A stretch of 64,000 nt of DNA from an uncultured Candidatus Saccharibacteria bacterium (GCA_964512925.1 CAZEKH010000004.1:2431-66430), one strand, 5' to 3'; shown: positions 2,738 to 64,000, numbered from the stretch's first letter. Program-made: numbers and translations. Notes: generated by a model from the letters alone, not told the origin.

Positions 2738-2772
2738 AAAAACCCGCCCTTTTTATAAAGGGCGGGTTTTAA
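2738..2772. terminator. bidirectional intrinsic terminator between convergent genes
   Basis: aaaaaaCCCGCCCtttttataaaGGGCGGGtttt, a perfect GC stem flanked by A and T runs on both sides. Confidence 0.8.
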
Positions 2773-2785
2773 ATTTGTATTCAGT

Positions 2786-3127
2786 TTAGACCGATTTAAC
2801 CATTTGGTCGAAAGCTTCAGGATGCTGAACAGCCATCTCTGCTAACATTTTTCTGTTTAGCTGGATGTTGTTTTTCTTCATCAAGGAAGCAAATTTGCTC
2901 CAGGTAGTGCCATTCTCTCTTAAGGCTGCATTGCAGCGAATAAGCCACAGAGCTCTGAAATCTCGTTTTTTATTGCGTCTGTCGCGATAGCTGTATGAAT
3001 CAGCTTTCAATAAAGCCATTCTGGCGGCGACAAAGTTGGTGGATCTGCGGTTGGTAAACCCCTTAGCTCTTTTTAAGAGGTTTTTTCTGCGCTTGTTTGC
3101 GGCAACGCCGCGTTTGATTCTGGTCAT
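2786..3127 (-). CDS. rplT: 50S ribosomal protein L20
   Basis: MTRIKRGVAANKRRKNLLKRAKGF...YRDRRNKKRDFRALWLIRCNAA matches the L20 consensus. It follows the infC-rpmI-rplT operon order. Confidence 0.92.
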   Translation of the reverse strand: MTRIKRGVAANKRRKNLLKRAKGFTNRRSTNFVAARMALLKADSYSYRDRRNKKRDFRALWLIRCNAALRENGTTWSKFASLMKKNNIQLNRKMLAEMAVQHPEAFDQMVKSV

Positions 3128-3130
3128 AGT

Positions 3131-3219
3131 TGCGACACTAATTTACGAATTGCACACGAATCACCCGAATTAGTGTCATTCGAGTCTTAATTCGGATCAT
3201 TCGAGTCGGTTAATTATTT
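3131..3219 (-). repeat. about 88-nt leader element, copy 1, immediately upstream of rplT
   Basis: TTGCGACACTAATTTACGAATTGCACACGAATCACCCGAATTAGTGTCATTCGAGTCTTAATTCGGATCATTCGAGTCGGTTAATTATTT is nearly identical to the copy at 3418-3506. It contains internal inverted repeats (CCGAATTA...TAATTCGG) and direct repeats (ATTCGAGTC x2). Confidence 0.85.
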
Positions 3220-3408
3220 GTATGGAATTAAGCTTTTAAGCTTGTCGTTGGTTTTGTGGAGGGAAAAGTCTCGACGTTTGTTTTTTGTAACTTTGCCTGA
3301 CTCTCTGGAATTAAAGTGGTTCTGTCCGGCTCGCCTGACTAGCATTTTACCTTTTTTACTGATCTTAATGCGTTTGGCTGTTCCTTGATGGGTTTTTACT
3401 TTTGGCAT
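3214..3408 (-). CDS. rpmI: 50S ribosomal protein L35. The true start is MPKVKTH; the ORF-track N-terminal extension MCNSKIRVAIIT is read from the leader repeat.
   Basis: MPKVKTHQGTAKRIKISKKGKMLVRRAGQNHF matches the L35 consensus MPKxKTHxGxAKR. It sits in operon context. Confidence 0.85.
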   Translation of the reverse strand: MPKVKTHQGTAKRIKISKKGKMLVRRAGQNHFNSRESGKVTKNKRRDFSLHKTNDKLKSLIPYK

Positions 3409-3417
3409 AGTGATTAT

Positions 3418-3506
3418 TGCGACCCTAATTTTCGAATTGCACACGAATCACCCGAATTAGTGTCATTCGAGTCTTAATTCGGATCATTCGAGTCGGTTAA
3501 TTATTT
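3418..3506 (-). repeat. about 88-nt leader element, copy 2, between infC stop and rpmI start
   Basis: Near-identical to the copy at 3131-3219, differing only in the first ~12 nt. Confidence 0.85.
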
Positions 3507-4007
3507 TGATGGAGCTATAAGTAAGGAAAAGGTGCCGCCCATTTTTTTGATCGGGATTTCTATCCGGAACGGAACGGAGATGAACTTTAAGAAAGTATCT
3601 AAGTGTTCCTTGCCAAGATGGGCGTAGGCTTGCTCCCGACCGCGCATCCGAAGCTCAATTTTTACCAAATCGCCATCATTTAGAAATTCGTCTATCTTTT
3701 TTGCCTTTACTTGCATATCGTGTTCGGAAATTCTGACAGAAATCCAGATGGTTTTTACTTCGGTTTTTTGGGAATTTTTCTTTTGCAAGGCTTCGGCTTT
3801 CTTTTGCTGATATTTGTATTTGGCAAAATCTATCACTTTGCAGACCGGGGGTTTTGCCATAGGCGCAACCTCCACCAAATCTAAGCCATTGTCAGTGGCT
3901 AATTTTAAAGCCTCAGAGGTTTTCATTACCCCGATTTGCTGGCCTTCTTCGTTTATTACCCGAACTTCGGGCACGTTGATTTGATGATTTAGTCTGACTT
4001 TAAGCAA
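3501..4007 (-). CDS. infC: translation initiation factor IF-3
   Basis: INVPEVRVINEEGQQIGVMKTSEALKLATDNGLDLVEVAPMAKPPVCKVIDFAKYKY is a typical IF3 N-domain plus linker. The gene heads the L35-L20 operon. Confidence 0.88.
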   Translation of the reverse strand: MLKVRLNHQINVPEVRVINEEGQQIGVMKTSEALKLATDNGLDLVEVAPMAKPPVCKVIDFAKYKYQQKKAEALQKKNSQKTEVKTIWISVRISEHDMQVKAKKIDEFLNDGDLVKIELRMRGREQAYAHLGKEHLDTFLKFISVPFRIEIPIKKMGGTFSLLIAPSK

Positions 4008-4210
4008 TATGTTTTGTATTTAAAAAGCTAATAGATTATAGCCTGGATTGTGGAAATTGTCAATAAAATTCAGTTAAATGACGGAAATTCGAACAAAAAC
4101 CAAAAACTAGCGCTGTTTCATTTATATTTTGTCAGTCAATCCGTTTCCCATACCCCTTAAATATAGTTATTTGCTGGAATTGACTCGTCAGGTTTAAAAA
4201 TAAAACGGCA

Positions 4211-5560
4211 CTAGAATAATAAAGATAAAATCGTTGCAATTGCGATTACAAGCATAAGCAGTACTGTCAGCCAGCCGAAAAAGTTAGCAAATTTCCCATT
4301 TTTCCATTGTTTCATTATTTTGGCGCTGCCGGATATTTTGACTATCAGGATTAAAATTATCGGCGCAATAAGCCCGTTTAAAACCGCGGAATATATCAGG
4401 GCGCGCATTGAATCCAGGCCGGAAAAATTTATCAAGAGGCCCAAAATCATAGAAATGCCAATGATAGTATAAAAAGCCACGGCCTTTTTTGGTTTTCTGT
4501 ATAGGCCGTTTCGTAAGCCAAAAGCTTCTGACAGCGCATAGGCAGCGCCGCCGGCCAGGATGGGCACGGCTAAAAGACCGGTGCCGATGATGCCTAAAGT
4601 AAAAAGTAAAAATGCCCGGTTGCCGGCCAGCGGCCTTAAAGCTTCTGCCGCTTCAGATGCGTTGGAAATATTGTGGATGCCATTCGGATACAAAGTGGCG
4701 GCGCAAGTCATAATGATGAAAAACATTACCAGGTTGGAAAAAAACATTCCGGTCCAGACATCTTTTCTCATCTCAGTAATTTCTTCGGGCTGTGTTTCAG
4801 CTTGCCTCAGTTTTAGGGTGGTTTTGCCGCTGAGTATTTCTTCTTCAACTTCCTGGGAAGTCTGCCAAAAGAACAGGTACGGCGAAATAGTGGTGCCTAA
4901 AATTGCGCATACTAACAAAATTTGTCCGCGGTCAAAGCCGAGGTGGGGAACCAGGGAATGATAAGCCAGCTGTCTTGCGTCAATATCTAAAAGCAAGCCC
5001 GTAAAGATGTAGGCCATCAGGGTAAAGGCCATCCATTTTAAATATCTGGCGTAGTTTTTATAGCTGACAAAAAACTGTAAAAGCAGAGATAGACAGCTAA
5101 AAAAGATCACTAAAACCGTGAAATTCCCATTTGGCCACAACAATTTAACTGCCTGGGCCATAGCCCCGAGGTCGGCTCCTAGGTTAAAAGTATTGGCAAA
5201 AAACAGCAACCCGGTAGTCAAATACAAAACCCATTTGGGAAAATGAGCTCGTATATTTGCGGCAAGGCCACGGCCTGTGACAATGCCGATCCTGGCGCAC
5301 ATTTCTTGAATAACTGCCATTATGGGAAAAGTCAGGGGAGCTAGCCATAAGAACTGAAAACCGTATTTAGCTCCGGCTTGAGAGTAGGTGGCGATGCCGG
5401 AAGGGTCGTCGTCAGCTGCCCCGGTTGTAAGTCCTGGCCCTAAATTGTTCCAGTAGTTTTCGGCTTTAGACAAAGCCCTGCGGCGGAAATTTTTGACCGA
5501 AAAATATTTATCTTCCGACTGATTTTTGTTTGTTGGTTTCAATTTTTTTGTTGCAGCCAT
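4211..5560 (-). CDS. mntH: NRAMP-family divalent metal (Mn2+/Fe2+) transporter
   Basis: GPGLTTGAADDDPSGIATYSQAGAKYGFQFLWL...MAVIQEMCARIGIVTG is the NRAMP signature. The protein is polytopic. Confidence 0.8.
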   Translation of the reverse strand: MAATKKLKPTNKNQSEDKYFSVKNFRRRALSKAENYWNNLGPGLTTGAADDDPSGIATYSQAGAKYGFQFLWLAPLTFPIMAVIQEMCARIGIVTGRGLAANIRAHFPKWVLYLTTGLLFFANTFNLGADLGAMAQAVKLLWPNGNFTVLVIFFSCLSLLLQFFVSYKNYARYLKWMAFTLMAYIFTGLLLDIDARQLAYHSLVPHLGFDRGQILLVCAILGTTISPYLFFWQTSQEVEEEILSGKTTLKLRQAETQPEEITEMRKDVWTGMFFSNLVMFFIIMTCAATLYPNGIHNISNASEAAEALRPLAGNRAFLLFTLGIIGTGLLAVPILAGGAAYALSEAFGLRNGLYRKPKKAVAFYTIIGISMILGLLINFSGLDSMRALIYSAVLNGLIAPIILILIVKISGSAKIMKQWKNGKFANFFGWLTVLLMLVIAIATILSLLF

Positions 5561-9861: not shown

Positions 9862-10396
9862 CGCCGGGAAGCAAGTCTGGCCAGAAGCCACGGGGCGGCT
9901 TCGTAGACCAGATAAAATGATGCCGAGGCAGTCAGAGACGAATAAGCAAGCGTCTCTTGGGCTGAAATCGCGAACATCCGCGGCAGGCAGACAACCAGTC
10001 CGCCTTGCACGGAAAATTCGGTCACTTCAGCGGGCCATGACTTTTTCAGTGTAGCCCATATAACTGCCCAAAAACCTTTTTCTGGTTCCCGGGTCTTTGT
10101 GTCGTAGTAGAGCGAGCCGTAGAATACGGCCATTTCTACAAGCATCGCAATACCTGCGATCACGGTTTCAGTTAAACCGAGGGTAGCAAGCCCTAAAACT
10201 ACCACTTGCGTGGCAGCCAGGGTTTTCCCTTCGGTAAAAAAAACGAAAGTTGCCTTTTTGCGCAGGGCTGTTACCCCGCGCCCAAAATAGGCATACGACC
10301 TCCTTTCCGCGTCGTTGTGTGTATAATATCAAAAACAACATCCTGATGTCCATTTGGATGTTGTTTTCAATCTTCAATCTTCAATCTGAAATTAGT

Positions 10397-11845: not shown

Positions 11846-12253
11846 TTACTCGCGGCTGTGGGTAGGCCTTGGAACAGCGTCCAGGCCTTGTTCTAAGATG
11901 AAATTTTTTAGTCCCTCCGGGACGTTTCTGGTTCCTGGCAGCGCCAGAAACCAGAGATGCTGTGGGTACCACTGCGCGGTTACCCACTGCACTTCCGCCC
12001 AAGCCTGGGCAGAGAGGTTTGCGGAAGTTAGGTCTACGACCAGCACTTCCGACCCCTCCAAAGGCCAGCCCGTGCAAAGCGCTTGCCGCGCTTCGTCTCG
12101 GGTGGCAAGTTCCCCGGATATGACGATCCGGGTGAACTCTCCTTCTTTCCTCACAACTTTACGCGACCAAGTTCTGGTCAAGCGTATGTAAAGAGGGCGG
12201 AAAAAGAGAAAAATTACAAAAACTATAATATAATTCATCTTCCTCCACTTCAA
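11846..12253 (-). CDS. hypothetical protein with an N-terminal TM segment and a possible STAS-like fold, in a GC-enriched segment
   Basis: N-terminal hydrophobic NYIIVFVIFLFF, then RIVISGELATRDEARQAL...LVVDLTSANLS. Local GC is clearly above the window average. A minus-strand hairpin plus T-run lies at the 3' end (about 11836-11862). Confidence 0.3.
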   Translation of the reverse strand: MKWRKMNYIIVFVIFLFFRPLYIRLTRTWSRKVVRKEGEFTRIVISGELATRDEARQALCTGWPLEGSEVLVVDLTSANLSAQAWAEVQWVTAQWYPQHLWFLALPGTRNVPEGLKNFILEQGLDAVPRPTHSRE

Positions 12254-13332: not shown

Positions 13333-13697
13333 ATTGAAAAAACCCTAGAAAAATGCTAGGATATAGGCCTTGGGGATGACGGTTTTTGACAGGTCTTTGA
13401 CATCTTTTTATATGCAAGGCGAGCTAGTCTGTAGCCTCGTAAATCCTACGGACATCAACAAATGCTGTTGAAACCTCTTGGAACAAAGTTGTTAAAGCTT
13501 TTGCTTTAGCTGATTTTGCTCCTGTTGCTGCTTAATAAAGTAGCAACACATACCCTTTCCCCAATTCCGGGAAAGACCAGTATGCTTATTTGGAATTTGC
13601 GGTTTTAAGGTTTGATTTGCACTTTAAAACCAAAGGCATTGTAAATCAATTTCAATGAATTTTCGCCAGACTTTGTTCATTGAAATATCAAGTTTGG

Positions 13698-15305
13698 CTA
13701 ACCTTGTGAACAATGGAAAGATTGAGAAGTTCTGGACCCGGGTTTAACTCCCGGCATCTCCACCATATTAGTTTTTGAGGTGTTAACTTGTGTTAATGCC
13801 TCTAAGACAAGCGGTAATTTTGGTGTTCCAAAGCCTGTGAATTTGTCGTATGATAATCCTTTGTTAAAGTAAACGTTCAAAAGTGTTCTTTTCTCAATGA
13901 TTTCAGGGCTGTTCCAGTGATTTAGAGGGTGTTCCAAATAGCCAAAGACCAATTGTAGAGCTTTTAAAAAATCTTGTGTATTATACTGCTGAATTTTACC
14001 CGCCGATTCAATGGCGGTTTTTTGTTTGAGTAAATTTTCTAACTCAATTTCGTAATGGCGAATAAGCGTTTGATTAGAAGTTTCAGAAATTCTTTGGGTT
14101 AGATTGCTAATCTTGGTGTTAAATTCGTTTATTTGTTTCAAATTTGCCTCTTGATTGCTAATTTCGCCATTTTGCCTTTTTTGCCACACATCAAGGAGTA
14201 TAGCTTCGGCTAGCTTTAAAATTTGAGTTTTGGGGGTAAGTTTCGCAAGCAGTATTTCAAAGTCTTTATGGACTTCTGTTTGTCGTAAGGTTTTATTGCG
14301 GTTTGAGCAAAACGGATACTTACACCAGTAGTGGGGGTAAAGAGTGCCGAGTTTGCCTTTATGCCAACTTGCAGTCATTGCTCTATTGCAGTTTGGACAA
14401 AGTAAATAATTCCTTAAAGGAAAATCAGCACTAAGGTCTTGGCGCATTTGCGGTTTAAGTCTAGTTTGTAATCGGGTTTTAACTGCTTGTAAAGTTTCGA
14501 AAGAAATAAACCCTTTATGTTTAGCTTTTCTAAAATCAACATCCCAATTTTTATATTCCAAATAGCCGGCATAAAGCGGATTAATCAAAATAGTTTTGGT
14601 TGCGTCTGCGCTTAAACTTTTCTTTAAGCCCTTAAGTTTATATTGTTCAAGTATAAATTGTCTGACTGCTTCAATGGTGTTAAGTTCGTAATCTCTAAAT
14701 TTTTCTATGGCTTGTTTGTAAATTACAGAAAATACCCCGTCAGGAGCTAATATATTGCCCTCGTGATCTTTTCTTTGGAATTTTAAGCCAGGTGGAGCGT
14801 GAAATGCCCAGTAGCCAAGTTCTAGCCTAGCTTTTTGTTTTTGGATAACTTGCCTGCGATTTTGTTCTCGTTCTAACTGTGAGGTGGCGGCAATAATATT
14901 TTCTACAAAAATTCCTTCAGGGGTTTCTTCAAACTTAAAATTTAAACACTCCAACTTAGCCAATCTTGAACCAAATTCTTTTTTTAGCTTTAAATGAACT
15001 TCTATATCTCTTGCAAATCTTTTTATGTCGTCAAATATAACAACGAACTTTTCTGAACTATTTTTGTCTAAAAACTTTAATACTTCTTTCATTGCAGGGC
15101 GTTCAAATAATCCGCCTGAAACACCTTCGTCTCGGAATATTTTTATAACTTCTAAGCCTTTAGCTAGGGCGTAAGCAATACACCTGTGCTCTTGGCTTTC
15201 TAAACCGCTACCCTCGGAAACTTGCTGGCCAGAAGATACACGGCAATAAATTAAGGCTTTTTGGTATTCATTTAGGTTTGTGTTGTTTTTCATATGTGTT
15301 ATCAA
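13698..15305 (-). CDS. large serine recombinase (phage-integrase type). TTG start as called by the ORF track.
   Basis: Resolvase catalytic domain ALIYCRVSSGQQ...VVIFDDIKRFARD, a recombinase domain, the zinc ribbon CPNCNRAMTASWHKGKLGTLYPHYWCKYPFC, and a C-terminal coiled coil. The last ~20 codons read through the tRNA-like fragment. Confidence 0.85.
   Translation of the reverse strand: MITHMKNNTNLNEYQKALIYCRVSSGQQVSEGSGLESQEHRCIAYALAKGLEVIKIFRDEGVSGGLFERPAMKEVLKFLDKNSSEKFVVIFDDIKRFARDIEVHLKLKKEFGSRLAKLECLNFKFEETPEGIFVENIIAATSQLEREQNRRQVIQKQKARLELGYWAFHAPPGLKFQRKDHEGNILAPDGVFSVIYKQAIEKFRDYELNTIEAVRQFILEQYKLKGLKKSLSADATKTILINPLYAGYLEYKNWDVDFRKAKHKGFISFETLQAVKTRLQTRLKPQMRQDLSADFPLRNYLLCPNCNRAMTASWHKGKLGTLYPHYWCKYPFCSNRNKTLRQTEVHKDFEILLAKLTPKTQILKLAEAILLDVWQKRQNGEISNQEANLKQINEFNTKISNLTQRISETSNQTLIRHYEIELENLLKQKTAIESAGKIQQYNTQDFLKALQLVFGYLEHPLNHWNSPEIIEKRTLLNVYFNKGLSYDKFTGFGTPKLPLVLEALTQVNTSKTNMVEMPGVKPGSRTSQSFHCSQG
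13738..13765 (+). other. tRNA-like 3' fragment (T-arm, acceptor 3' strand, discriminator, CCA). No matching 5' half is present, so this is a candidate att-site remnant.
   Basis: CCGGG-TTTAACT-CCCGG (5-bp T-stem, 7-nt T-loop), then CATCTCC, A, CCA. No complementary GGAGATG acceptor 5' strand occurs within 100 nt upstream. It lies under the 3' end of the serine recombinase ORF. Confidence 0.4.
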
Positions 15306-15659
15306 GAATATTGGTAATTATAAAATACAGGGAATTTCTAATTTCCTCAACTTGCTTGTCGGTTAAGTCAAGCCCTATAAGATATTTTTTACATTCTTTT
15401 ACACTCAACATTGCTTTATGTATGTTATAATAGGCTTGCTAATTATTAACCCAGAAAGGCAAAATCTATGATTACAAATCAAGGGAAATTGCTCGAAATG
15501 GCTGTTGAAATTACCAAAGAATATGCCAGAAGCGGAGAAGCCAAAAGTGGTGCCGTGCAGACAGTTCTTGAAGAAGTTTTTAACAAGCTTGTAGAGCTAA
15601 ACACCAAAGGCTAGTGGTATTATTATGTTTTAAAAGCGATTCGTAATTACGGGTCGCTT

Positions 15660-16461
15660 TTAAGTTTTTAACAAACTATCGACTTGAAAACCGTCTGGAA
15701 AAATCATGTCTACCTGTTTAACATTTTTCCCGTCAGGGGTTGTGTATTCAGCTTTTTTAATTACACATTGCGTTACGTCAATTTTTTTATTTAATTCTTC
15801 TATAGACTCTGGGTTTCGTATAACTACGGGTTTTTTTAAATTGCGGGAGGAGTAAAATCTTTTGGCAAATTTTTTGTGTTTTTCGCCCATGTCTTTTTGA
15901 ATGTATTTAGAAATATAATTAGCTAAGTGTTCTAAATTTTTTGTTGATTCATTAAAAATAAATCCTTGTCCCCAAATTTCAGTAAGAACTTTGTGAGGGT
16001 CTTTAAGGATTGGGATATTAAAAAGTACAACATGATAATGCACCGCACCACGTTTTTGGTATTCTGGGACTGCAATATAGGCTAAATTATTTTTGATTTT
16101 TGACATAGTAATTAAGCCTTTTTAAAAAGTTTTTAAATATAATATTTGCCTCCTTTAAATCTTGAATATTTTCAGCGAAAGTTAAGGTTAAAAATTGGGG
16201 AACAAATCGCTTTTTTGTTTGGGGGTTAAAGTACTGCCAACCATTGCACCAAATTAACCGTTTTAAAGCACTCTTGGCTTTTCTTGCGCTCTCTTCAGGG
16301 TTGGCTAATTTTTCGTAAATAATTTTATTTACATGAGGCTTTTGGTTTACACTAAAGGCGTAACCAATTGGCCTGTCGTATTCTTGAATGGTTATTTTAG
16401 AACCTGTGATTATTAATATTTTATTTGTTATTTTCATCGCCTTATGTTTCTTTAATATCAA
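15660..16461 (-). pseudogene. rolling-circle replication initiator (HUH endonuclease, Rep_trans-like) split by a frameshift into two overlapping ORFs (16087..16461 and 15660..16106)
   Basis: Motif 1 FLTLTF sits in the upstream ORF. The HUH motif HYHVVLF and the catalytic Tyr region ANYISKYIQKD sit in the downstream ORF. The ORFs overlap by 20 nt in different frames. The combined length of about 265 aa is typical of RCR Rep proteins. Confidence 0.6.
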
Positions 16462-16464
16462 GTA

Positions 16465-16625
16465 ATACAGAGAGCCGGGCGGCCGCCATTTTGGCGGCGC
16501 GCCCGGGCACCCATCTGCCGTATAGGCACCGTGGTTGACACCGGGTAAGTCAGAGCCACGCGGAACCCGGTTTATGTGCCTGCCGGCATGACCGTAAACC
16601 TGCTCCGTGCGAACCCAACAAAAAA
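16465..16625. other. GC-rich (>60%) structured segment between rep and the next gene; candidate double-strand origin or ncRNA
   Basis: GAGCCGGGCGGCCGCCattttGGCGGCGCGCCCGGGC is a long imperfect hairpin, and further GC-rich stems follow. The composition contrasts sharply with the ~38% GC flanks. It holds no ORF. Confidence 0.35.
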
Positions 16626-16688
16626 CCTAGGGGTTAACCTAGGTGAAGCATACAGAGCAAAGTTTGGGAAAGTTGGGGAAAATATTGA

Positions 16689-17582
16689 TTACAAAAAAAG
16701 CTCGTTAATACGCACTGTTCCTGCTCTTTCGGAGGTGGCGATTAAAAAATCTTTATTTGCCCCCGGGAGCTTTTCTGTAATTAACTTAGGAATTTTTGCA
16801 TTAATACGAATGCAAATATCATAATATTTACGCCATTTGCTTTTACTTTTATCATAATCATAGTCACCGAAAGCATTTTCAGCGATATCTGCATACGGAA
16901 TTGTTTTTCCCAAAGATTTTCTATCTGAAAATATATATTCTAAAAGCCGATTTTCGTTTGTGTTTGCTTTTCGAGGCTTTATAACAATCCGTTTACCTTT
17001 TAAAATAAGAATACCGTTAATATATTCAAGCTTTAGAAGTTTTTCTTCTTGTGATTTTTGAACAACTTCCTGAACATCAGGGTTAGCCAGCTGTCTGAGC
17101 AAATACCTATGAACTTTTTGCCATTTTGCTTTAATATCTTTTTCGTAAGTGTGATAGTAGTTATTTTTAGAAGTTTCGTTTTTATATAATTCCCAAATAC
17201 CTAACTGAATTCTATCCCAAATACTTTGGTGTTTATTTTTTTTTATATACTCAATTTCTTCTCCAAGAGTTCCTTTTTTTAGACTGTCTTCTGCCTCAGT
17301 AGCAAATACTAACTCCATATAGTCTTCCGAGCAGTTGGTGTAAAGTTTTTCGCCCAAGATTTTTTGCATTATTTCATACTCTTTTTCGTTTCTGGCTTTT
17401 GGTATTTTGTGTCTAGCGCTTCTTAAATCTTGATGCTCATTTTCAATCATCTTTTTTAGCAAAGGCGTTTTTTCAACAAATTTAACATAAGCACCTATCT
17501 TTAAAATGAAATCAAAAGAGACAGGGAGGTTTATTCCTCTATTGTAAATTTTCTTAAGCTTTTCTTCGGTTTTTGTAGGCAT
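16689..17582 (-). CDS. hypothetical protein (297 aa) in the mobile-element-like region
   Basis: Long ORF with a Lys/Glu-rich, coiled-coil-like centre. No recognisable motif. Confidence 0.4.
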   Translation of the reverse strand: MPTKTEEKLKKIYNRGINLPVSFDFILKIGAYVKFVEKTPLLKKMIENEHQDLRSARHKIPKARNEKEYEIMQKILGEKLYTNCSEDYMELVFATEAEDSLKKGTLGEEIEYIKKNKHQSIWDRIQLGIWELYKNETSKNNYYHTYEKDIKAKWQKVHRYLLRQLANPDVQEVVQKSQEEKLLKLEYINGILILKGKRIVIKPRKANTNENRLLEYIFSDRKSLGKTIPYADIAENAFGDYDYDKSKSKWRKYYDICIRINAKIPKLITEKLPGANKDFLIATSERAGTVRINELFL

Positions 17583-17699
17583 AACTGGATTATAACAGCG
17601 AAATTTGCTATATTTTAAGTATAACTAAATAGCCTAAACCTGAGCAATCGGGCATGGCACAAAAAAATCTCAAGACGATACTGAACCCCGCGTTCAGCT

Positions 17700-17772
17700 A
17701 TTCGTCTTGAGTCATACCCGAAAGGGTATGGGGTGTAAAAGCCCGGCTGACACGGGGCTTTGTGTTTTTATA
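17700..17772. repeat. structured ~65-nt repeat, copy 1
   Basis: GAGTCATACCCGAAAGGGTATGGGGTGTAAAAGCCCGGCTGACACGGGGCTTTGTGTTT. It is preceded by a 10-bp inverted repeat CTCAAGACGA...TCGTCTTGAG. The related copy is at about 20331-20405. Confidence 0.6.
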
Positions 17773-17782
17773 AAAAAAATTT

Positions 17783-18286
17783 ATGATTGAACTAATATTA
17801 TTTATTGCACTGATTTTCATTATTTTTGGGGTCATTGCATTCTTCATTAACCTTATCAAAAAACACTCATTTTCTGATACCATTTTTCAAAACGCCTATT
17901 ACAAAAAACAGTATTTAATTACTAAAGCCGAACACCAGTTTTTTAATATTCTGCAAGAAATAGTTCGGGACAAATACTATGTTTTTCCACAAATCCATTT
18001 AGCCAGTTTGCTTGAAGTAAAAAACAGTGAGAAAAATTGGAGATCCTATTTCAATAAAATAATCCGCAAATCCGTTGACTTCGTTATTTGCGACAAACAA
18101 TATTTAAAGCCACTGCTCGTCATTGAGCTAGACGACCTTACTCATTATCGTTATAAGAGGCAAGATCGAGACCAGTTTGTAAATCAAGCATTAGAATCTG
18201 TAGGGCTAAAATGCCTTCATATACGTACATCTTACTCTTATAATTTGGAGGAACTAAAAAGCCAAGTATTGCAGGGATTGTTATAA
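17783..18286 (+). CDS. DUF2726-domain protein (restriction-endonuclease-like fold) with an N-terminal TM anchor
   Basis: TM segment LILFIALIFIIFGVIAFFI, then VDFVICDKQYLKPLLVIELDDLTHY...RDQF, which matches the DUF2726 pattern vDFvl...p.laIElDg.sH...RD.f. Confidence 0.55.
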   Translation: MIELILFIALIFIIFGVIAFFINLIKKHSFSDTIFQNAYYKKQYLITKAEHQFFNILQEIVRDKYYVFPQIHLASLLEVKNSEKNWRSYFNKIIRKSVDFVICDKQYLKPLLVIELDDLTHYRYKRQDRDQFVNQALESVGLKCLHIRTSYSYNLEELKSQVLQGLL

Positions 18287-18377
18287 AAGTGCTTAACATA
18301 TTTTTATAAAATTGACTTTATTTACGCATAGTTTTATACTTGGGTGAAAGAATATTTTAATGTAAAAGGCTAAATTA

Positions 18378-18794
18378 GTGGCGGAAGATCAAAAAAAATA
18401 TAAATACGAAAGCGATGAACAAATATTTAAGGAGTTGTTTGTCGGTTTTGATGATTTCTTTAAACCCATTTTTGAAAGTTTTTCCATAAGCAAAAAAACT
18501 TTTGTGCTGCAAGTAGTAAATTTTATTTTAATATTTTATTGGTTTTATTTACTATTAGGTGATGCACCAGACAGATTACTTACTAAAATTAATGGAAGTG
18601 GCGTACTGGGAATGAGACTTTTATTACTAGTTGTAGTTGTGTGTGGAATCTCGTTAATTACCAAAAATAAAATTTTAAGATGGCAGACACTATTTATGAC
18701 AAAGTATGAATTGACCCAAAGTTATTTTTGGAGAATCTTGTTTCTAGTAGCACTAACATATTTTGGTAATAAAATTTATGCAAAAAGACATTAA
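18378..18794 (+). CDS. hypothetical polytopic membrane protein
   Basis: Three to four hydrophobic helices (FVLQVVNFILIFYWFYLLL, LLLLVVVVCGISLI, FWRILFLVALTYF). Confidence 0.35.
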   Translation: MAEDQKKYKYESDEQIFKELFVGFDDFFKPIFESFSISKKTFVLQVVNFILIFYWFYLLLGDAPDRLLTKINGSGVLGMRLLLLVVVVCGISLITKNKILRWQTLFMTKYELTQSYFWRILFLVALTYFGNKIYAKRH

Positions 18795-19512
18795 GAATAA
18801 AATATTAGCTATTGGCGTTTTAATTTTTGTGGTGGGCTTGACGATTGGAATTATTCAATTAGTCGGTGTTGGTATTGATTGGCTAAGGAAAAAATTAGAT
18901 TTGCCGAATACCTCTAATCCTGGAAGCGCACAACTAGCTCCAGGTTTATCTAGCAGTACTCCAGAGCGAGTTCAGCTTTCACAAAATTCTGATTTTGATT
19001 TTTATAATACACTAAATAAAATAGCACTATCTTCTTCTACAGAAAGCTGGGTTAATAAAAATGGAAAAGTGGAAGGGAGAATATATAAAAAATTTATTAG
19101 AGTCGATGGGGATATTTCTAATGCATACTTATTTGTTGAGGTCTCGGTTGATAATAATAAGCCTTTAACTGTTTGGGATAGTATATACGTTTCTTTAAGA
19201 AAGGAAGTTGGTGGTTATTTGTACGAACCTGTTGCTGGTCATTTGTTAAGATCAAAAAGTTTAAATATACCACCTTCTAATACCACGAGGTTGCTGTATG
19301 ATATGCAACAAATACCTTTTACGACTATCCCTTATTCGGATAATAATAATTTTGTAAACAAAAATTGGTTGTCAAATATTCAAACAGCTAAGACTTTTCA
19401 ATTTGAAACTTTCCTGTCTACAAGCAGAAAAGGCGGAAAGATTGTTAATATAAGCATCGGCTATCAATGTGCTCAAGAAACTCCTAATTGTAAACTAGAA
19501 GTAATCCAATAG
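18778..19512 (+). CDS. hypothetical membrane-anchored or secreted protein. The likely start is MQKDIKNK.
   Basis: N-terminal TM segment ILAIGVLIFVVGLTIGIIQLVGVGI, then a hydrophilic domain with two Cys near the C-terminus. Confidence 0.35.
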   Translation: MQKDIKNKILAIGVLIFVVGLTIGIIQLVGVGIDWLRKKLDLPNTSNPGSAQLAPGLSSSTPERVQLSQNSDFDFYNTLNKIALSSSTESWVNKNGKVEGRIYKKFIRVDGDISNAYLFVEVSVDNNKPLTVWDSIYVSLRKEVGGYLYEPVAGHLLRSKSLNIPPSNTTRLLYDMQQIPFTTIPYSDNNNFVNKNWLSNIQTAKTFQFETFLSTSRKGGKIVNISIGYQCAQETPNCKLEVIQ

Positions 19513-19625
19513 TTGTTTAAATTTTAATAGCCCTTAATCGGGCTATTTTTACTACATATTTAGGACGCCAGAAATTCTAAAAATTTCCTCATAAAGTAAG
19601 TTCCACCCATTTTTGAGAATCTCCA

Positions 19626-20000
19626 CCACTGCTTCGCCAAGGCTACGAAGTGCAAGCACACCGATAATGCTCGCCATTTGAAAAAGTTAAAACATTAGTA
19701 GCAACGAAGCAGTGCCCTTCGAAGCTTTAAGCGTAGTAGGGCTGTATCTTCTTCGCCAAGGCTACGAAGTGCAAGCACTGCTTATAGATAGGTTTGTTTA
19801 AAAAGTAAGCTTGTAAATTTACGATGCGAAGAAGTGTCCTGCGTAGCTTTAGCGAAGCAGGGCTGTATCTGCTTCTCTTTCACCTTCGCCAAGGCGACGA
19901 AGTGCAAGCACACCGATAATGCTAGCCATTTGAAAAAGTTAAAACATTAGTAGCAACGAAGCAGTGCCCTTCGAAGCTTTAAGCGAAGTAGGGCCATAAG
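19626..20000. repeat. non-coding array of ~110-bp repeats: two full copies plus partial internal copies
   Basis: CTTCGCCAAGGCTACGAAGTGCAAGCACACCGATAATGCTCGCCATTTGAAAAAGTTAAAACATTAGTAGCAACGAAGCAGTGCCCTTCGAAGCTTTAAGCG(T/A)AGTAGGGC occurs at about 19633-19745 and about 19886-19998. Partial copies lie between them (CTTCGCCAAGGCTACGAAGTGCAAGCACTGC..., GCGAAGCAGGGCTGTATCTGCTTC). Confidence 0.75.
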
Positions 20001-20058
20001 TTTATAAAATGCCCAACTATAAGGTTGGCTTTTTATTTTGGAGTGATATAATTCTTAT

Positions 20059-20298
20059 ATGCACTATACCTACATTCTCCAAAGCCTGCTAGATAAAAGC
20101 CATTATGTCGGCTCAACCCACGATTTAAAATCACGGATTGTTAAACATAACAACGGTGAGGTAACCTATTCAGCAAAAAAACGCCCTTGGAAACTGGTTT
20201 GGTACTGCGCTTTCCCAACAAAAAAGCAAGCAGTTGATTTTGAGCTCTATCTAAAACAAGGTTCAGGCTTTGCCTTTGCAAGAAAACATCTGGTTTAA
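20059..20298 (+). CDS. small GIY-YIG nuclease-family protein (UPF0213/YhbQ-like)
   Basis: YTYILQSLLDKSHYVGSTHDLKSRIVKHNNGE...WKLVWYCAFPTKKQAVDFELYLK matches the GIY-YIG core (YxYIL...YVGsT...R...H...kpWkLv..e.f....A...E..lK). Confidence 0.7.
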   Translation: MHYTYILQSLLDKSHYVGSTHDLKSRIVKHNNGEVTYSAKKRPWKLVWYCAFPTKKQAVDFELYLKQGSGFAFARKHLV

Positions 20299-20330
20299 AA
20301 TTAAAAAAGCTCCTTACCCCTTTTGTTTTT

Positions 20331-20405
20331 CCCAACGAGTCATATCTCGAAAGGGATATGGGTTCCGCAAGGGATCGGCTGGCGTGGGGCTTTGTGTTTC
20401 TGCGC
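20331..20405. repeat. structured ~65-nt repeat, copy 2 (related to 17700-17772)
   Basis: GAGTCATATCTCGAAAGGGATATGGGTTCCGCAAGGGATCGGCTGGCGTGGGGCTTTGTGTTT. Confidence 0.6.
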
Positions 20406-20433
20406 CGGCTTCTATCATTAAAAGAAATTTTAT

Positions 20434-20649
20434 ATGTTCGCGAAAAACAAGCTGCCGGTATTAGCAATAGCAATCTACACGTTTTTTAACCTTAAAGCGG
20501 TTTTGGGAATTATCTTCACTAAAGGTTGGTGGATGTTAGTTTTCACTACCAGTAATAATAGCGCGAGCACACTGACGCTAGGGGTAGTACTAGGATTATT
20601 CCTAAATGTTGGGGTCATACTGTATTTTTGGAAAAATATCAAAGTCTAA
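20434..20649 (+). CDS. small two-TM membrane protein (71 aa), hypothetical
   Basis: LPVLAIAIYTFFNLKAVLGIIF and LTLGVVLGLFLNVGVILYFW. It lies directly upstream of the large nuclease-NTPase gene. Confidence 0.3.
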   Translation: MFAKNKLPVLAIAIYTFFNLKAVLGIIFTKGWWMLVFTTSNNSASTLTLGVVLGLFLNVGVILYFWKNIKV

Positions 20650-20784
20650 GTACGGATATTAAAAATGTCAGGGGTATAATTCCCTGACATTTTTGTTAAA
20701 TGAGGCAAAAATATGAGGAGTGTTCCTGTAATTTTTCTCCCTAATATGTTATGATTTTAGTGAAAATACAGTATTCCAATCACT

Positions 20785-27306: not shown

Positions 27307-27478
27307 TTAGAATTATTAGTAAATTAGAAATTAGAAATTAGAATAATTTCCTCTAAAACTTTGTCATTCCCGCGGATCCGCCAACTGGCGGAGGGAATCT
27401 AGTTAACAAAATTAAAGTTTAATTTAGAGGTAAATGAGGTAATTGCCTGCCCGAATGCCAAGCAAAGCCTTGCAGAAA

Positions 27479-41454: not shown

Positions 41455-42363
41455 ATGGACTCACAATATATTAAAACATTGTTATCACGATACGGATTAA
41501 AACCTAATTTCACTTACGGGCAGAATTTTTTGATTGACGAGGTCGTGCTGGAAGATATGGTGGACGCAAGCGGGATAAGTAAAGAAGATTTGGTTTTGGA
41601 GATCGGGCCGGGTATCGGCAACTTGACCCGCAAACTATGCGAAAGAGCCGGCTTTGTTTTGTCCGTGGAAAAAGATCCCAAGTTTCAGCCCATTCTTTAC
41701 AATATTAAAAAAGATTTCCGGGACAATTTTAGATATGAGATATTTGACGCTTTGGAGTTTGACTACCAAGATTTTTTGGAAAACTATACAAGGCACGAAA
41801 TATCCGAATTAAAAACGAACGACACCAATTCGGGACATTCGGGTGAAGTTCGTAAATTAGTGTCGCCCTACAAAGTTGTCGCCAACATCCCTTACTACAT
41901 CACCGGGAAAATTTTGGAAATGTTTATGACCTCAAAAAATAAACCTTCCAGCATCACGGTTCTCACCCAAAAAGAAGTTGCAGAAAGAGTGGTCGCAAAG
42001 GCCGGGGGGATGTCGCTTCTTTCCATCTCGGTTCAACTTTACGGCGAGCCGAAAATCATTTCCATTGTTCCTGCCAGAAGTTTTTATCCGGCGCCTAAAG
42101 TTGATAGCGCGGTTTTGAAAATAGATCTTTTTGAAAAGCCTAAATACGAAATTGAAGATGAGAAGAAATTTTTCAAAGTCCTAAAAGCTTGCTTCTCTGG
42201 AAAACGAAAACAGATCCACAACACCCTGTCCGGAAATTTCGGACTGCCTAAAGAAAAAGTTTTAGAAGTTTTATCCGAACTTTCCATTGACCCGAAAATT
42301 CGTCCCCAGGAACTGGAGATAGAGCAGTGGGTGGAGTTGGTTAAAAAAATCAGTAGTAATTAG
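41455..42363 (+). CDS. rsmA: 16S rRNA (adenine1518/1519-N6)-dimethyltransferase RsmA/KsgA
   Basis: YGQNFLIDEVVLEDMVD...VLEIGPGIGNLT is the SAM motif. VVANIPYYIT is the NLPY-type motif. Confidence 0.85.
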   Translation: MDSQYIKTLLSRYGLKPNFTYGQNFLIDEVVLEDMVDASGISKEDLVLEIGPGIGNLTRKLCERAGFVLSVEKDPKFQPILYNIKKDFRDNFRYEIFDALEFDYQDFLENYTRHEISELKTNDTNSGHSGEVRKLVSPYKVVANIPYYITGKILEMFMTSKNKPSSITVLTQKEVAERVVAKAGGMSLLSISVQLYGEPKIISIVPARSFYPAPKVDSAVLKIDLFEKPKYEIEDEKKFFKVLKACFSGKRKQIHNTLSGNFGLPKEKVLEVLSELSIDPKIRPQELEIEQWVELVKKISSN

Positions 42364-42409
42364 TATGAAGTATTATGTATTAAGTATTAAGCAAATAAAT
42401 TCCTAATTC

Positions 42410-45847: not shown

Positions 45848-45887
45848 ATCTTATAGTAAATAAATAGGAAAAATCAAGTCTTTTTTA

Positions 45888-45923
45888 CCCCGCCCCGATG
45901 TACATCGGGGCGGGGTTTTGTTA
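45888..45923 (+). terminator. intrinsic terminator
   Basis: CCCCGCCCCGATGtaCATCGGGGCGGGGttttgtt. The CCCCGATGTNCATCGGGG core is shared with repeat family 2. Confidence 0.8.
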
Positions 45924-52167: not shown

Positions 52168-52617
52168 TTGTACGAAGTAACAATGCAATTTCCAGTACCA
52201 CAATTTACCGAAGTTGAGGATAAAATTTTTGGTCCCTTGACCCTAAAGCAGTTTGGTATTGTTTTTGGAGCCGGGGTGGTGATATTTTTGGGTTACAGCG
52301 CGACCAAAAGCCTGGCGGTTTTAGTAGTTTTGTTTTTATTGTTTGGACTTCCGGCATTGGGAATAGCCTTTGCTAAGCCAAACGGCAGGCCGCTATACAA
52401 TTCTTTCGGATTTATGTTTAGATTTTATACCAGTCCCAAAGAGTTGATATTCCACCGCGAAGCTCGGTCTGCGGGCGCGATGCCAAAAAATCAAAATCCA
52501 GATCAGGCACCTGCTTCAGTTGACGCGAACCTCGGCACCACTCAGGACAGGCTAAGGGAAGTTAACCAGCTGCTGCAAAAAAATGCACAGGAAGAAAAAG
52601 ATATTTTGAAGATGTAG
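52168..52617 (+). CDS. small two-TM membrane protein, VirB3/PrgI-like by position and topology
   Basis: Helices FGIVFGAGVVIFLGY and LAVLVVLFLLFGLPALGIAFA. Immediately upstream of the VirB4 N-domain ORF. Confidence 0.4.
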   Translation: MYEVTMQFPVPQFTEVEDKIFGPLTLKQFGIVFGAGVVIFLGYSATKSLAVLVVLFLLFGLPALGIAFAKPNGRPLYNSFGFMFRFYTSPKELIFHREARSAGAMPKNQNPDQAPASVDANLGTTQDRLREVNQLLQKNAQEEKDILKM

Positions 52618-52687
52618 AAGCCCAAATTTTAAATTAAAAATGTATTTAAGTAATTCAATTTAAAAATATTCGCTGTGTAGGGCACAG

Positions 52688-52790
52688 TCGTTCGACCTCT
52701 CCCGCTCCGATGTCCATCGGGGCACCCTCCCCACCCGCCTGCAGCGATATGTGCAGCATTTCGGGCAGGAGCCTGGGGAGGGAAAAACTG
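52688..52790. repeat. hairpin repeat family 2 copy
   Basis: GTTCGACCTCTCCCGCTCCGATGTCCATCGGGGCACCCTCCCCACCCGCC...GCCTGGGGAGGG. It overlaps the annotated N-terminal extension of the next ORF. Confidence 0.7.
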
Positions 52791-52807
52791 TATTAAGTTT
52801 TTATCCT

Positions 52808-53494
52808 ATGAAGTTTGATATGCAAAATAAAAACAAATCAACCGGCAAAACAACCCAAAGCTTTTTACGCATCGCTGAGATCAAATCCGATACCGCAGTG
52901 ATGGATGACGGGACTTTGAGGGCAATTTTGTCTGTCTCGTCCACCAATTTTGATTTAAAAAGCCAAGACGAGCAAAATGGGATAATATTTAACTTCCAAA
53001 GGTTTTTAAATTCTTTGGATTTTCCCGTTCAAATTTTGATGCAAAGCCGAAAGATGGATGTCGGGGCTTACTTGGAAAAGCTCAAGCGGATTTCGGAAAA
53101 GCAGACTAACGAACTTTTGCGAGTGCAGACCCAGGAATATGTGGAGTTTATCGCCAGGCTGGTGGAAAATGCCAGCATTATGAACAAAAATTTTTATGTT
53201 GTTGTGCCTTTGGGCGAAAGCGTCAATCCGAATGCAGCAGGTTTTTTCAGTAAAATATTTGGAAACGGCAAAGCCAAAGAAGCCAAAGAACGGATTGAGA
53301 ATTTTGAAAAAGCTTCGGAAAAATTGAATTTGCGTGTCAGCGCGGTTTTGTCCAACCTATCCAGCGTGGGGGTAAGATCAGCCAGGCTGAAAACCGAAGA
53401 GATCATCCAACTTTACTACAACTCTTATAATTTTGATGCCGCTCCAAACATAGACGCCACTAAAATCCCGGAAATGGATATTGTTAATACTTAA
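52808..53494 (+). CDS. VirB4/TrbE/CagE-family N-terminal domain, separate ORF. The start is taken at MKFDMQ because the ORF-track extension reads through a repeat.
   Basis: RAILSVSSTNFDLKSQDEQNGIIFNFQRFLNSLDFPVQILMQSRK resembles the VirB4 N-domain. It ends with TAA in the same frame as the ATPase ORF, which restarts 27 nt downstream. Confidence 0.5.
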   Translation: MKFDMQNKNKSTGKTTQSFLRIAEIKSDTAVMDDGTLRAILSVSSTNFDLKSQDEQNGIIFNFQRFLNSLDFPVQILMQSRKMDVGAYLEKLKRISEKQTNELLRVQTQEYVEFIARLVENASIMNKNFYVVVPLGESVNPNAAGFFSKIFGNGKAKEAKERIENFEKASEKLNLRVSAVLSNLSSVGVRSARLKTEEIIQLYYNSYNFDAAPNIDATKIPEMDIVNT

Positions 53495-53521
53495 ATAAAA
53501 ATATAAAACTACTTCATCACA

Positions 53522-55369: not shown

Positions 55370-55390
55370 TTTTTAAAATTATTAGATTAC

Positions 55391-55472
55391 ACCCGCATCC
55401 TTTCCCCCTCTCCCGTTAGACGGGGGAGCCTGCCCGACTTGGTCATTCAGGCGGGGGTAGGGGTGGGGGTGA
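55391..55472. repeat. composite hairpin repeat related to family 1
   Basis: CCCCCTCTCCCGttagaCGGGGGAGcctgcccgacttggtcattcaggcGGGGGTAGGGGTGGGGGTG. Confidence 0.6.
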
Positions 55473-55555
55473 ATTTTTTTAAAATTCAGTGAAAATTGTC
55501 CCGATGTCAATCGGGATCCCGCTTCGCGGGAAAAATTGGTAATTGAAATTTTTTT

Positions 55556-58457: not shown

Positions 58458-58517
58458 GATCGTTTGACCCCTCCCGCCCCGATGTCCATCGGGGCACGCT
58501 CCCCAAGCCTGGGGAGG
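58458..58517. repeat. hairpin repeat family 2 copy
   Basis: GTTTGACCCCTCCCGCCCCGATGTCCATCGGGGCACGCTCCCCAAGCCTGGGGAGG. Confidence 0.75.
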
Positions 58518-62352: not shown

Positions 62353-62416
62353 TATATAAAAGGGACGGGGTGAGGTTGCGGAATATTTTTTTAAAATAAA
62401 ACTATGTGGATTACCA

Positions 62417-62478: not shown

Positions 62479-64000
62479 TTACTCAAAATGCACCGCCTGG
62501 CCTTTTAGTTTTTGTTGGAGCAGGGGGTAGTTTTTTAGTTCCAGATCATCTTCCAAAAGTTTTCTGGCCTCTTGCCTAGCTTTGGGGATCAGGGCTATGT
62601 AGTCGGGGTTGAAGTATTTGTAATCAAAACCTGACTGAGTTTCGCCAAACAGCTTGCCAAAACCCCTTTGCTTTAAGTCTATTTCAGCCAGCTCAAAGCC
62701 GTTTCGGGTTTTGGTAAAGGAAGTGAGGCGGTCTAAGCTTTCGTTTTGAACAATAACTCTCCCAGGACCCCTCTTTGAAAAAGAGGGGGTTTCTGCAATT
62801 TCGCCCCCTCTTAAAGTAAGAGGGGGTTTGGGGGTGATACTGTTTTCTGTTGTAAACAAAAAGCAGTAGCTTTGGTGTTCGGCACGGCCGACGCGGCCGC
62901 GAAACTGGTGGAGCTGGGACAGACCGAAACGTTCTGCTCCTTCTATGACCATCACTGAAGCGTTTGGCACATCTACCCCAACTTCCACAACTGACGTTGA
63001 AACTAGGATTTGGATTTTGTTGTCTAAAAAATCCTGCATAACTTGTTCTTTTTCTTTGCTCTTCATTTTTCCGTGGAGGAGACCAATCAGAACTCCCCCC
63101 GCCTTCGCCAAGGCTTCGGCGGGCAAGGCCTGCCCACTCCCCTCAAGGGAGGGGAAAGAGGCGGTAAAGGGGGATGAAGGGGGTTTTTGAGAAAGCTCAG
63201 CAAATATTTTTTGCAGATTTAAAACTTCTGTTTTGGCGGACTTTATGTCAGACGTTTCGTTTTCCTCTATGAGCGGGGTTATGACAAAAGCCTGCCTGCC
63301 TTTTTGTATTTGTTCTTTAATAAACTCATAAGCCTTGTTTCTGTTTTCGTCTGTAACCAGTTTGGTTATGATAGGTTTTCTTTCAGCCGGCTTTTGTCTT
63401 ATCTGCGAAATATCTAACTCTCCAACAAAAGCCAGTTTAAGCGTGCGCGGGATCGGCGTTGCGCTCATAGAAAGTAAATGAGGCACTTTATGAGTCACTG
63501 AGTCGTTATCCGCGTGGCTCCGCTTCTTAGTCGGATCCGCATGAAATCCGCGCAGCAAAGTTCCTCTTTGCTCTACCCCGAAGCGGTGTTGTTCGTCGAT
63601 GATCACGAGGGCTAATTTTTTAAAATTGACCTTTTCTTCCAAAAGCGCGTGCGTGCCGATGTACAGCCCTGGCATACCATCCTGAAGTTCTTGTAGTAAT
63701 TCTTTTTTAGTTTTTTCTTTACGATTGATGAGTGAGTAGGTTTGAGTATAAAGTATGCTGCGGCAGTTGAAAAAAGGTTTTTTTTCCACCAAATATTTCA
63801 AAGCGCTTTCGTGATGCTGTTTGGCTAAAACTTCAGTTGGGCATAACAAAGCTACTTGTAAGCCTTTTTGTATCGCCTGAAGTGCGGCGATGAAAGAAAC
63901 CAAAGTTTTTCCCGACCCAACATCTCCTTCCAAAAGCCTGTTCATAGGAGATGATTTTTCCATATCCTGCAGTATGTCCCAGGCCGCTTTTTTTTGTTCT
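62479..64000 (-). CDS. recG: ATP-dependent DNA helicase RecG, 5'-partial (continues beyond the window end). It carries two in-frame hairpin-repeat insertions.
   Basis: Motif I MNRLLEGDVGSGKT, motif II LVIIDEQHRFG, and LHGKMKSKEK...ILVSTSVVEVGVDVP...FRGRVGR (helicase C-domain). The minus-strand frame stays open to nt 64000 (EQKKAAWDILQDMEKSSP...). The extra segments PPSSPFTASFPSLEGSGQALPAEALAKAGG and PPLTLRGGEIAETPSFSKRGPGRV coincide with repeat copies at about 63095-63188 and about 62767-62838. Confidence 0.88.
   Translation of the reverse strand, partial: EQKKAAWDILQDMEKSSPMNRLLEGDVGSGKTLVSFIAALQAIQKGLQVALLCPTEVLAKQHHESALKYLVEKKPFFNCRSILYTQTYSLINRKEKTKKELLQELQDGMPGLYIGTHALLEEKVNFKKLALVIIDEQHRFGVEQRGTLLRGFHADPTKKRSHADNDSVTHKVPHLLSMSATPIPRTLKLAFVGELDISQIRQKPAERKPIITKLVTDENRNKAYEFIKEQIQKGRQAFVITPLIEENETSDIKSAKTEVLNLQKIFAELSQKPPSSPFTASFPSLEGSGQALPAEALAKAGGVLIGLLHGKMKSKEKEQVMQDFLDNKIQILVSTSVVEVGVDVPNASVMVIEGAERFGLSQLHQFRGRVGRAEHQSYCFLFTTENSITPKPPLTLRGGEIAETPSFSKRGPGRVIVQNESLDRLTSFTKTRNGFELAEIDLKQRGFGKLFGETQSGFDYKYFNPDYIALIPKARQEARKLLEDDLELKNYPLLQQKLKGQAVHFE
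62767..62838. repeat. hairpin repeat family 1 double copy, inside the recG CDS and in-frame
   Basis: CCCCTCTTtgaaaaAGAGGGGG...CCCCCTCTTAAAGTAAGAGGGGGTTTGGGGGTGAT. The loop TTAAAGTAA is identical to the intergenic copy at 11738-11770. Confidence 0.7.
63095..63188. repeat. GC-rich hairpin repeat inside the recG CDS and in-frame
   Basis: CCGCCTTCGCCAAGGCTTCGGCGGGCAAGGCCTGCCCACTCCCCTCaagGGAGGGGAAAGAGGCGGTAAAGGGGGATGAAGGGGG. It shares the 12-mer CTTCGCCAAGGC with the 110-bp repeat at 19.6-20.0 kb. Confidence 0.6.

Follow-up and report, generated by a model that had tools for sequence, protein, structure and literature searches.

A small palindromic repeat in both spacers of the infC-rpmI-rplT operon and in frame within ksgA in a Patescibacteria genome

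Results

The infC-rpmI-rplT operon

The window, by which we mean the whole 64,000-nucleotide stretch of DNA that was analysed, carries infC, rpmI and rplT in this order on the minus strand (Table 1). Judging by the sequences of its L20 and KsgA proteins it belongs to the Patescibacteria (CPR): the best named matches of L20 and KsgA come from Candidatus Doudnabacteria and 'Patescibacteria group', and the L20 entries in databases, apart from the identical P0001 of the source genome, reach at most 87% identity. The sigma-70-like site upstream of infC is the sole promoter-like site on the minus strand between 2700 and 4300, and the three genes look like one tricistronic transcript. Given that this site precedes infC and that the sole terminator follows rplT, both copies of the element described below would be transcribed as hairpins within the tricistronic mRNA; promoter-like and terminator-like sites were searched for inside both copies and none was found. 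The 203-nt region 5' of infC has no unusual structure (z = 0.3).

A Shine-Dalgarno-like motif within 20 nt 5' of the start is present in five of the 61 ORFs of the window and is absent before rpmI and rplT. Several starts have a TATAAT-like box 2-12 nt upstream, for example those of the ORFs beginning at 28432 and 52168, and such a box is also found near the start of the minus-strand ORFs 16689..17582, 11846..12253 and 13698..15305, which suggests that leaderless or very-short-leader mRNAs may be frequent. The longer rpmI reading frame that reaches 3444, with the N-terminal sequence MCNSKIRVAIIT, is spurious, as the initial annotation had supposed, since in most relatives L35 has 64 residues and starts with MPKVK.

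Table 1. Genes, putative signals and repeat copies in the window
Feature	Coordinates	Strand	Basis
infC (IF3), first cistron	3501..4007	-	Pfam IF3_N/IF3_C in syntenic relatives
rpmI (L35), 64 aa, ATG at 3408	3214..3408	-	ORF call and comparison with relatives
rplT (L20), 113 aa	2786..3127	-	ORF call and L20 database matches
Promoter-like site upstream of infC, perfect sigma-70 consensus TTGACA-17-TATAAT	4035..4063	-	
Bidirectional terminator-like hairpin after rplT, 14 bp, G+C-rich	2739..2770	.	
Repeat copy A, fills the infC-rpmI spacer (3409-3500, 92 nt)	3417..3500	-	nhmmer E = 8e-28
Repeat copy B, fills the rpmI-rplT spacer (3128-3213, 86 nt)	3130..3213	-	repeat search, alignment, nhmmer
Repeat copy C, diverged, in frame in ksgA/rsmA	41792..41866	+	nhmmer E = 2.7e-21
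ksgA/rsmA, 16S rRNA dimethyladenosine transferase, host of copy C	41455..42363	+	PDB KsgA match, E = 4e-42

Two near-identical copies in the operon spacers

The two spacers of the operon are filled by copies A and B of one element, which are identical at 82 of 84 positions within the spacers and both fold into hairpins, so that a near-identical, duplicated structured element, as first annotated at this site, is indeed present. An exact core of 53 nt has two matches in the window and none in 100 shuffles. The similarity runs on into the last codons of the upstream genes, to 3513 in infC and to 3226 in rpmI, giving a direct repeat of 104 nt at 93% identity in a repeat search (3123-3226 versus 3410-3513) and an alignment of 97 nt at 95.9% by blastn. 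The shared stretch begins in the upstream gene's last codons and its TAA, and stops 2 nt 5' of the ATG of rplT and 8 nt 5' of that of rpmI. Copy A is flanked by AATAAT on both sides, and copy B by AATAAT upstream and AACTAT downstream.

The inverted repeat CCGAATTA/TAATTCGG and the doubled ATTCGAGTC, both described earlier, were recovered in the element, which is a palindrome with 19-nt arms of 84% complementarity. Each spacer has one dominant imperfect hairpin (-24.3 and -21.6 kcal/mol; z = -2.8 and -2.4), with 2 of 200 shuffles equally stable. On the sense strand three CGAAU units lie in the 5' arm and three AUUCG units in the 3' arm, 9-12 nt apart, and because each arm has three such units a register-shifted hairpin is found within 2 kcal/mol. 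The minimum-free-energy hairpin ends about 25-30 nt before the ATGs.

A third copy in frame within ksgA

The element is not confined to the operon, since a diverged copy, C, lies in ksgA, 38 kb away, which makes three copies at two loci within the window. A pattern search with up to three mismatches gave only A and B; copy C was detected by blastn-short and then by nhmmer, and a sensitive comparison of every spacer against 465 kb of DNA led to copy C and to the extra copies of relatives described below. The initial annotation had proposed a check for many additional copies elsewhere in the genome: one more was found, within ksgA, in the 64 kb scanned. When a genome collection without the source genome was scanned for the hairpin core, there was one match, in a TPR gene of a Pyrinomonadaceae MAG, and a scan of viral contigs gave three simple hairpins with no flanking similarity, each being about the number expected by chance.

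Over 72 nt, copy C shows 83% identity with copy B; it is flanked by CTATACAA upstream and CTACAAA downstream, and its hairpin has decayed (z = -0.6). It encodes approximately residues 113-138 of KsgA (RHEISELKTNDTNSGHSGEVRKLVS). When the protein is compared with B. subtilis KsgA, residues 110-139 of the query face nine residues, an excess of about 21 residues directly before VVANxPYY. In the AlphaFold model of KsgA (mean pLDDT 83.9, pTM 0.82), residues 119-135 have a pLDDT below 50 and no secondary structure, so copy C encodes, according to the model, a disordered loop of about 21-26 residues, inserted in frame at a position compatible with the fold. The loop insert is missing in seven of 19 homologues from the clade, while a related insert is present in P0122 and P0123 and, more distantly, in P0160, and other homologues have different inserts. 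This family was seen in frame in ksgA alone, although a search with a 56-aa concatenated peptide, which matched nothing, missed even the window's own KsgA. Copies A and B contain stop codons in the frame that is used by ksgA.

The loop before VVANxPYY (alignment columns ~140-195) is an insertion hot spot in the clade, the proteins ranging from 272 to 345 aa. Several of the inserts are rich in PP...GG (P0126, P0156, P0147), as expected from translated G+C-rich palindromes.

Other repeats and elements in the window

The ORF for a RecG-like helicase (62479..63963, minus strand) holds two in-frame, G+C-rich palindromic segments, at 62749-62844 and about 63087-63225, the palindromes being CCCCTCTT...AAGAGGGG twice, and CCCCTCCCTTGAGGGGAG followed by a GCC-rich hairpin. 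In an alignment with T. maritima RecG, only 3 residues lie opposite query residues 372-405 and 13 opposite 247-292, an excess of about 31 and about 33. These segments belong to a family that is G+C-rich and different from that of the CGAAT element. About seven hairpins of the CCTCCCC...GGGGAGG type, like those of the RecG-like segments, occur in intergenic DNA of the window, and a dispersed family of G+C-rich hairpins with the core CCCCGATGTNCATCGGGG was observed at 45887-45916, 52688-52733, 58460-58505, 62410-62469 and near 55500; the hairpins with this core may resemble terminators or REPs.

Within a convergent intergenic region of 628 nt, 19629-19994 is occupied by repeats of about 111-130 nt (97% identity for 19632-19742 versus 19884-19994), and short tandem units of 7-8 nt are found in the spacers 42358-42395, 27307-27478 and 10206-10396 (AGTATTA/AGTATGA; TTCTAAT three times; AGATTGA three times). 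A type IV secretion-like cluster extends over 52168-58426, with a PrgI family protein, a P-loop ATPase of the TraG/VirB4 type and a large protein in which the lysozyme-like domain SLT_3 is present.

A Pfam scan of 55 of the window's 61 ORFs gave no transposase family, and the sole recombinase is a serine recombinase beside the tmRNA gene. The tmRNA gene lies at 13372-13765, its 3' end overlapped by the large serine recombinase ORF (13698..15305, minus strand), beyond which, up to 23469, are found a replication-protein ORF (15660..16106), a LOOT RNA (17631-17744), a DUF2726 protein and a protein containing HSDR_N. The region 13372-23469 has the appearance of an element that became integrated at the tmRNA gene.

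Turnover of the two spacers among relatives

The syntenic locus (Nramp, infC, rpmI, rplT, two unknown genes, PaaX_M) was gathered from 11 further lineages through exact-protein matches; a metagenome search with L20 gave one close relative and 79 distant loci, and the distant loci served as outgroup controls only. The infC-rpmI spacer measures 63-291 nt in all ten related lineages where it is readable, and the rpmI-rplT spacer of the relatives 36-109 nt, compared with medians of 0 and 3 nt, respectively, in the outgroup loci (n = 39). Most of the long spacers form a single long hairpin with arms made of short tandem units (z from -2 to -6.4), the base of which is situated, in most relatives, 0-12 nt past the stop codon and mostly 3-16 nt before the ATG. 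Between rpmI and rplT a long hairpin is present in eight of 12 lineages (z = -2.4 to -6.4) and absent in L092, L096, L100 and L103. The sequences of the spacers are mostly unrelated between the 12 lineages and their content differs in all 12; even relatives whose L20 is 81-87% identical carry unrelated ones. The two spacers of a single genome, by comparison, are nearly identical in L008 (74/78) and L098 (64/70), and partially so in L010 (47/61).

The best KsgA match (68% identity; L20, 81%) is provided by L102 and L103, which are two parts of one 63.6-kb contig. L102 carries the repeat family at the same position of ksgA, where it folds into an almost perfect hairpin (-42.3 kcal/mol, z = -8.1), and in L103 the element is in neither operon spacer, the rpmI-rplT spacer being 47 nt long and unstructured (-0.7 kcal/mol). 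The presence of the element thus varies, as seen in the KsgA homologues that lack the insert, in the operon spacers of L103 and in the changing content of the spacers. Conservation of structure with covariation across relatives, which had been suggested as a check on the element, was not found: the element is missing from the operon of the nearest relative, and the covariation of five family members is +1.12, a value that is uninformative because most pairs are invariant.

Hairpins of the same kind occur elsewhere in these genomes. In L010 the intergenic spacer that follows contains another full hairpin, the third, and in L028 a second copy lies at a distance of 1 kb. The family with the TATAGGAC unit makes up the short rpmI-rplT spacers of L092, L096 and L100, and also two large palindromes in other spacers of L004, whereas TTATCAT units are found in L012 and L101, and elsewhere in L094. 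The spacer after ksgA in the window (42358-42395) contains units of the L094 type, AGTATTA/AGTATGA, with 89% identity over 38 nt to the rpmI-rplT hairpin of L094. L094 and L095 are one 7-nt unit apart, a difference that points to slippage as its probable origin. CGAAT/ATTCG units recur in the infC-rpmI spacers of L079, L028 and L096; the distant L079 spacer matches the window element at 47 of 61 positions (nhmmer E = 0.004, borderline), which is suggestive of a widespread CGAAT family. Within the window, 23 of the 38 spacers of 40-250 nt have z <= -2.4, that is, they are at least as structured as those of the operon, and many of them bear G+C-rich hairpin families.

A clade-wide conserved intercistronic hairpin subject to concerted evolution was also considered and was downgraded in view of the extra copies elsewhere, the hairpin-less lineages and the equally structured unrelated spacers.

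Discussion

Taken as a whole, our results are best explained by a small dispersed palindromic repeat, similar to MITEs and, in its in-frame insertion, to Rickettsia palindromic elements (RPEs), of which the two spacer copies are most likely tolerated passengers in the mRNA; we assign to this reading a probability of roughly 0.7. The family would consist of imperfect palindromes of about 80 nt, each arm with three CGAAT/ATTCG units. An older copy would have entered a surface loop of KsgA in frame, the insertion being common to the window and its nearest sampled relative, and two young copies (2 differences in 84 nt) would have been pasted into the spacers of infC-rpmI-rplT within this lineage. 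We infer that the copying proceeded by transposition or, the two sites being 287 bp apart, by gene conversion or template switching between them; copies tend to lie in neighbouring spacers, in the window as well as in L008, L098 and L010, a pattern equally compatible with transposition and with conversion or switching on a local scale. Once in the mRNA, the copies would most probably be tolerated, any effect on processing, stability or translation arising as a by-product. Across the clade, the same spacers seem to have been repeatedly filled, lost and overwritten by different families of unit-built palindromes. The suggestion in the initial annotation that a mobile intergenic repeat had happened to land twice is retained here in a modified form, given the third copy in ksgA and the analogous families of relatives with their extra copies.

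Some observations speak against a repeat of this kind. The scan of window ORFs gave no transposase, and the direct repeats at the flanks are ambiguous, AATAAT bordering copy A on both sides but copy B only upstream. All three copies are in translation-related genes and in sense orientation, which would be compatible with a shared function, even if they represent two independent loci only, and arms made of tandem units are atypical of described MITEs or RPEs. Moreover, the infC-rpmI spacer is at least 63 nt long in every related lineage where it can be read, against the outgroup median of 0 nt, and the long spacers at this site could reflect selection for a hairpin there instead of simple tolerance.

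It has also to be considered that the hairpins, whatever their origin, have been selected or co-opted and are kept for a function in the operon, an alternative that we regard as unlikely. Candidate functions are an RNase III-type processing site or a 3' stabiliser that uncouples the mRNA levels of infC, rpmI and rplT; a fold that juxtaposes the stop codon and the next start, and so favours re-initiation in a genome that hardly uses Shine-Dalgarno sequences; or an insulator that leaves the start region unpaired. The greater length of the infC-rpmI spacers relative to the outgroup, the long hairpins that two thirds of the lineages have before rplT, and the proximity of the hairpin base to the stop codon and mostly to the ATG would all agree with such a function, as would the scarcity of Shine-Dalgarno-like motifs and the predicted co-transcription of the copies with the operon. 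There is also precedent among co-transcribed repeats: Correia repeats serve as substrates of RNase III, and mRNA decay is changed by ERIC elements (PMC10969869). With so few Shine-Dalgarno motifs, and with the hairpin base so near to the stop and start codons of relatives, a role in re-initiation, processing or stability is conceivable. Such a role would nevertheless not be required, to judge from the lineages without a hairpin and from how widespread hairpin-filled spacers are: before rplT a long hairpin is missing in four of 12 lineages, among them L103 with its unstructured spacer, and hairpins are equally common in unrelated spacers of the genome, including convergent ones. In the window, in addition, the minimum-free-energy hairpin falls short of the ATGs, and the covariation analysis lends no support.

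A further and quite improbable reading is that these repeats represent an undescribed class of tandem-unit palindromes in this clade of the Patescibacteria, which spread locally between spacers and into protein loops. If it were true, expression of the internal cistrons might be possible without initiation directed by Shine-Dalgarno sequences.

The position of the element, right before both downstream cistrons of the L20 operon, is apt for a translational operator, and the initial annotation had proposed a duplicated, operon-specific L20 autoregulatory RNA, in which the copies mimic helices 40/41 of 23S rRNA and excess L20 represses the translation of rpmI and rplT. Known L20 sites are irregular helices of variable length and low sequence conservation (PMC3616713). 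Their published signature is an AA dimer together with two G-C pairs in succession, within a helix whose sequence varies (PMC7247131, PMC3616713), and a loose reading, by hand, of the fold of the window hairpin gives C-G pairs that follow one another and a step A39-A40 in which A40 bulges out. The 23S rRNA gene itself lies outside the window. The proposal is nonetheless very unlikely to be correct. At the gathering threshold of Rfam, there is no L20_leader match in the window and no family matches the spacers, although E. coli L20 sites may be unrepresented; at E <= 10, the sole L20_leader (RF00558) match is at 2730-2823, on the rplT terminator, with 15.7 bits versus a threshold of 58.7 (E = 6.5), so that neither L20_leader nor any other family is matched within the spacers. 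The closest relative is without the element in both spacers, and relatives with an L20 that is 81-87% identical have unrelated hairpins, or in some cases none. The signature is not kept among relatives either: the hairpins of L008, nearly free of G+C, never show two G-C pairs in a row, and a hairpin before rplT is lacking in L103. The same element is found inside ksgA, and the covariation term is positive. Compared with the L20-binding leaders (the pseudoknot and stem-loop of E. coli, RF00558 of Bacillus and a candidate of Deltaproteobacteria), the element is in the same operon and, as in E. coli, a structured RNA precedes rpmI; it differs from them in matching no model, in that the combination of AA dimer and G-C pairs is not shared by relatives and the element itself is not conserved in the nearest one, and in being also duplicated before rplT and present in ksgA.

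It is barely credible that the duplication comes from a mis-assembled metagenome contig, as a short-read Logan contig that joins infC, the element and rplT and omits rpmI (L002) and another that begins inside the element (L001, 1-48) might suggest, because the copies can be told apart by two internal differences and by their two ends, the stop and start codons on either side of each copy are the correct ones, the collapsed path of L002 requires rpmI between two copies, and the same layout, with unrelated sequences, recurs in L098/L099 and in the L006-L009 lineage, the latter represented by four independent assemblies. The duplicated layout is seen in three other lineages that were assembled independently. 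The Logan contigs break or collapse at the element, as would be expected of a real repeat.

The duplicated element before rpmI and rplT resembles a new ribosomal-protein riboregulator and behaves as a dispersed palindromic repeat, so that a tempting false positive is removed; none of the features analysed singles the copies out as a dedicated operon regulator. In an ultra-small Patescibacteria genome, small palindromic repeats lie in frame in at least two conserved genes, those of KsgA and the RecG-like helicase, and the spacers of a core translation operon undergo rapid turnover of different repeat families. Small palindromic repeats, including in-frame ones, are of a known kind, for which published analogues exist in the in-frame insertions of RPEs and in the Correia and ERIC elements that are co-transcribed with genes (PMC10969869); what we describe is a new family in Patescibacteria, unusual in its unit-built arms and in its rapid turnover in a core operon. 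In the literature searched, we found no paper that links palindromic elements with Patescibacteria. That the repeats break or collapse short-read assemblies at the operon also has consequences for binning and gene calling, of which the spurious extension of rpmI is an example.

Among known systems, the REP/BIME sequences, mobilised by RAYT/Y1 enzymes, are likewise intergenic imperfect palindromes downstream of stop codons. REPs have a conserved 5' GTAG; the window element lacks this start, exceeds a REP in length and has an apparently low copy number. No Y1_Tnp gene was found in the 64-kb window. In the relative L096, a Y1_Tnp (IS200/IS605-type) gene is located at 5066-5345, 2.2 kb downstream of rplT, and this enzyme class is a possible candidate for the mobilisation of the hairpin repeats.

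The co-transcribed MITEs (Correia/nemis, ERIC, RUP) are non-coding imperfect palindromes of about 80-200 nt that adjoin genes or lie between them, form long RNA hairpins, vary in presence between relatives, and can alter mRNA processing (PMC10969869). The element has in common with them its kind, size, location, hairpin and variable presence, but we found in it no internal promoter-like site and no clear terminal inverted repeats apart from the palindrome as a whole, its flanks show no clean target-site duplication, and the window gave no cognate IS or transposase. From RPEs it differs in size (about 80 nt versus about 100-150 nt), in phylum, in its arms of 5-nt core units every 9-12 nt, and in that its intergenic copies have stops in the ksgA frame, one in-frame copy having been seen. 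As with RPEs, on the other hand, short palindromes are found both between genes and in frame within conserved protein genes (PMC10969869), the peptide appears to be tolerated at a non-core position, here the KsgA loop with its predicted pLDDT below 50, and families are common to related genomes and decay after insertion (PMC10969869).
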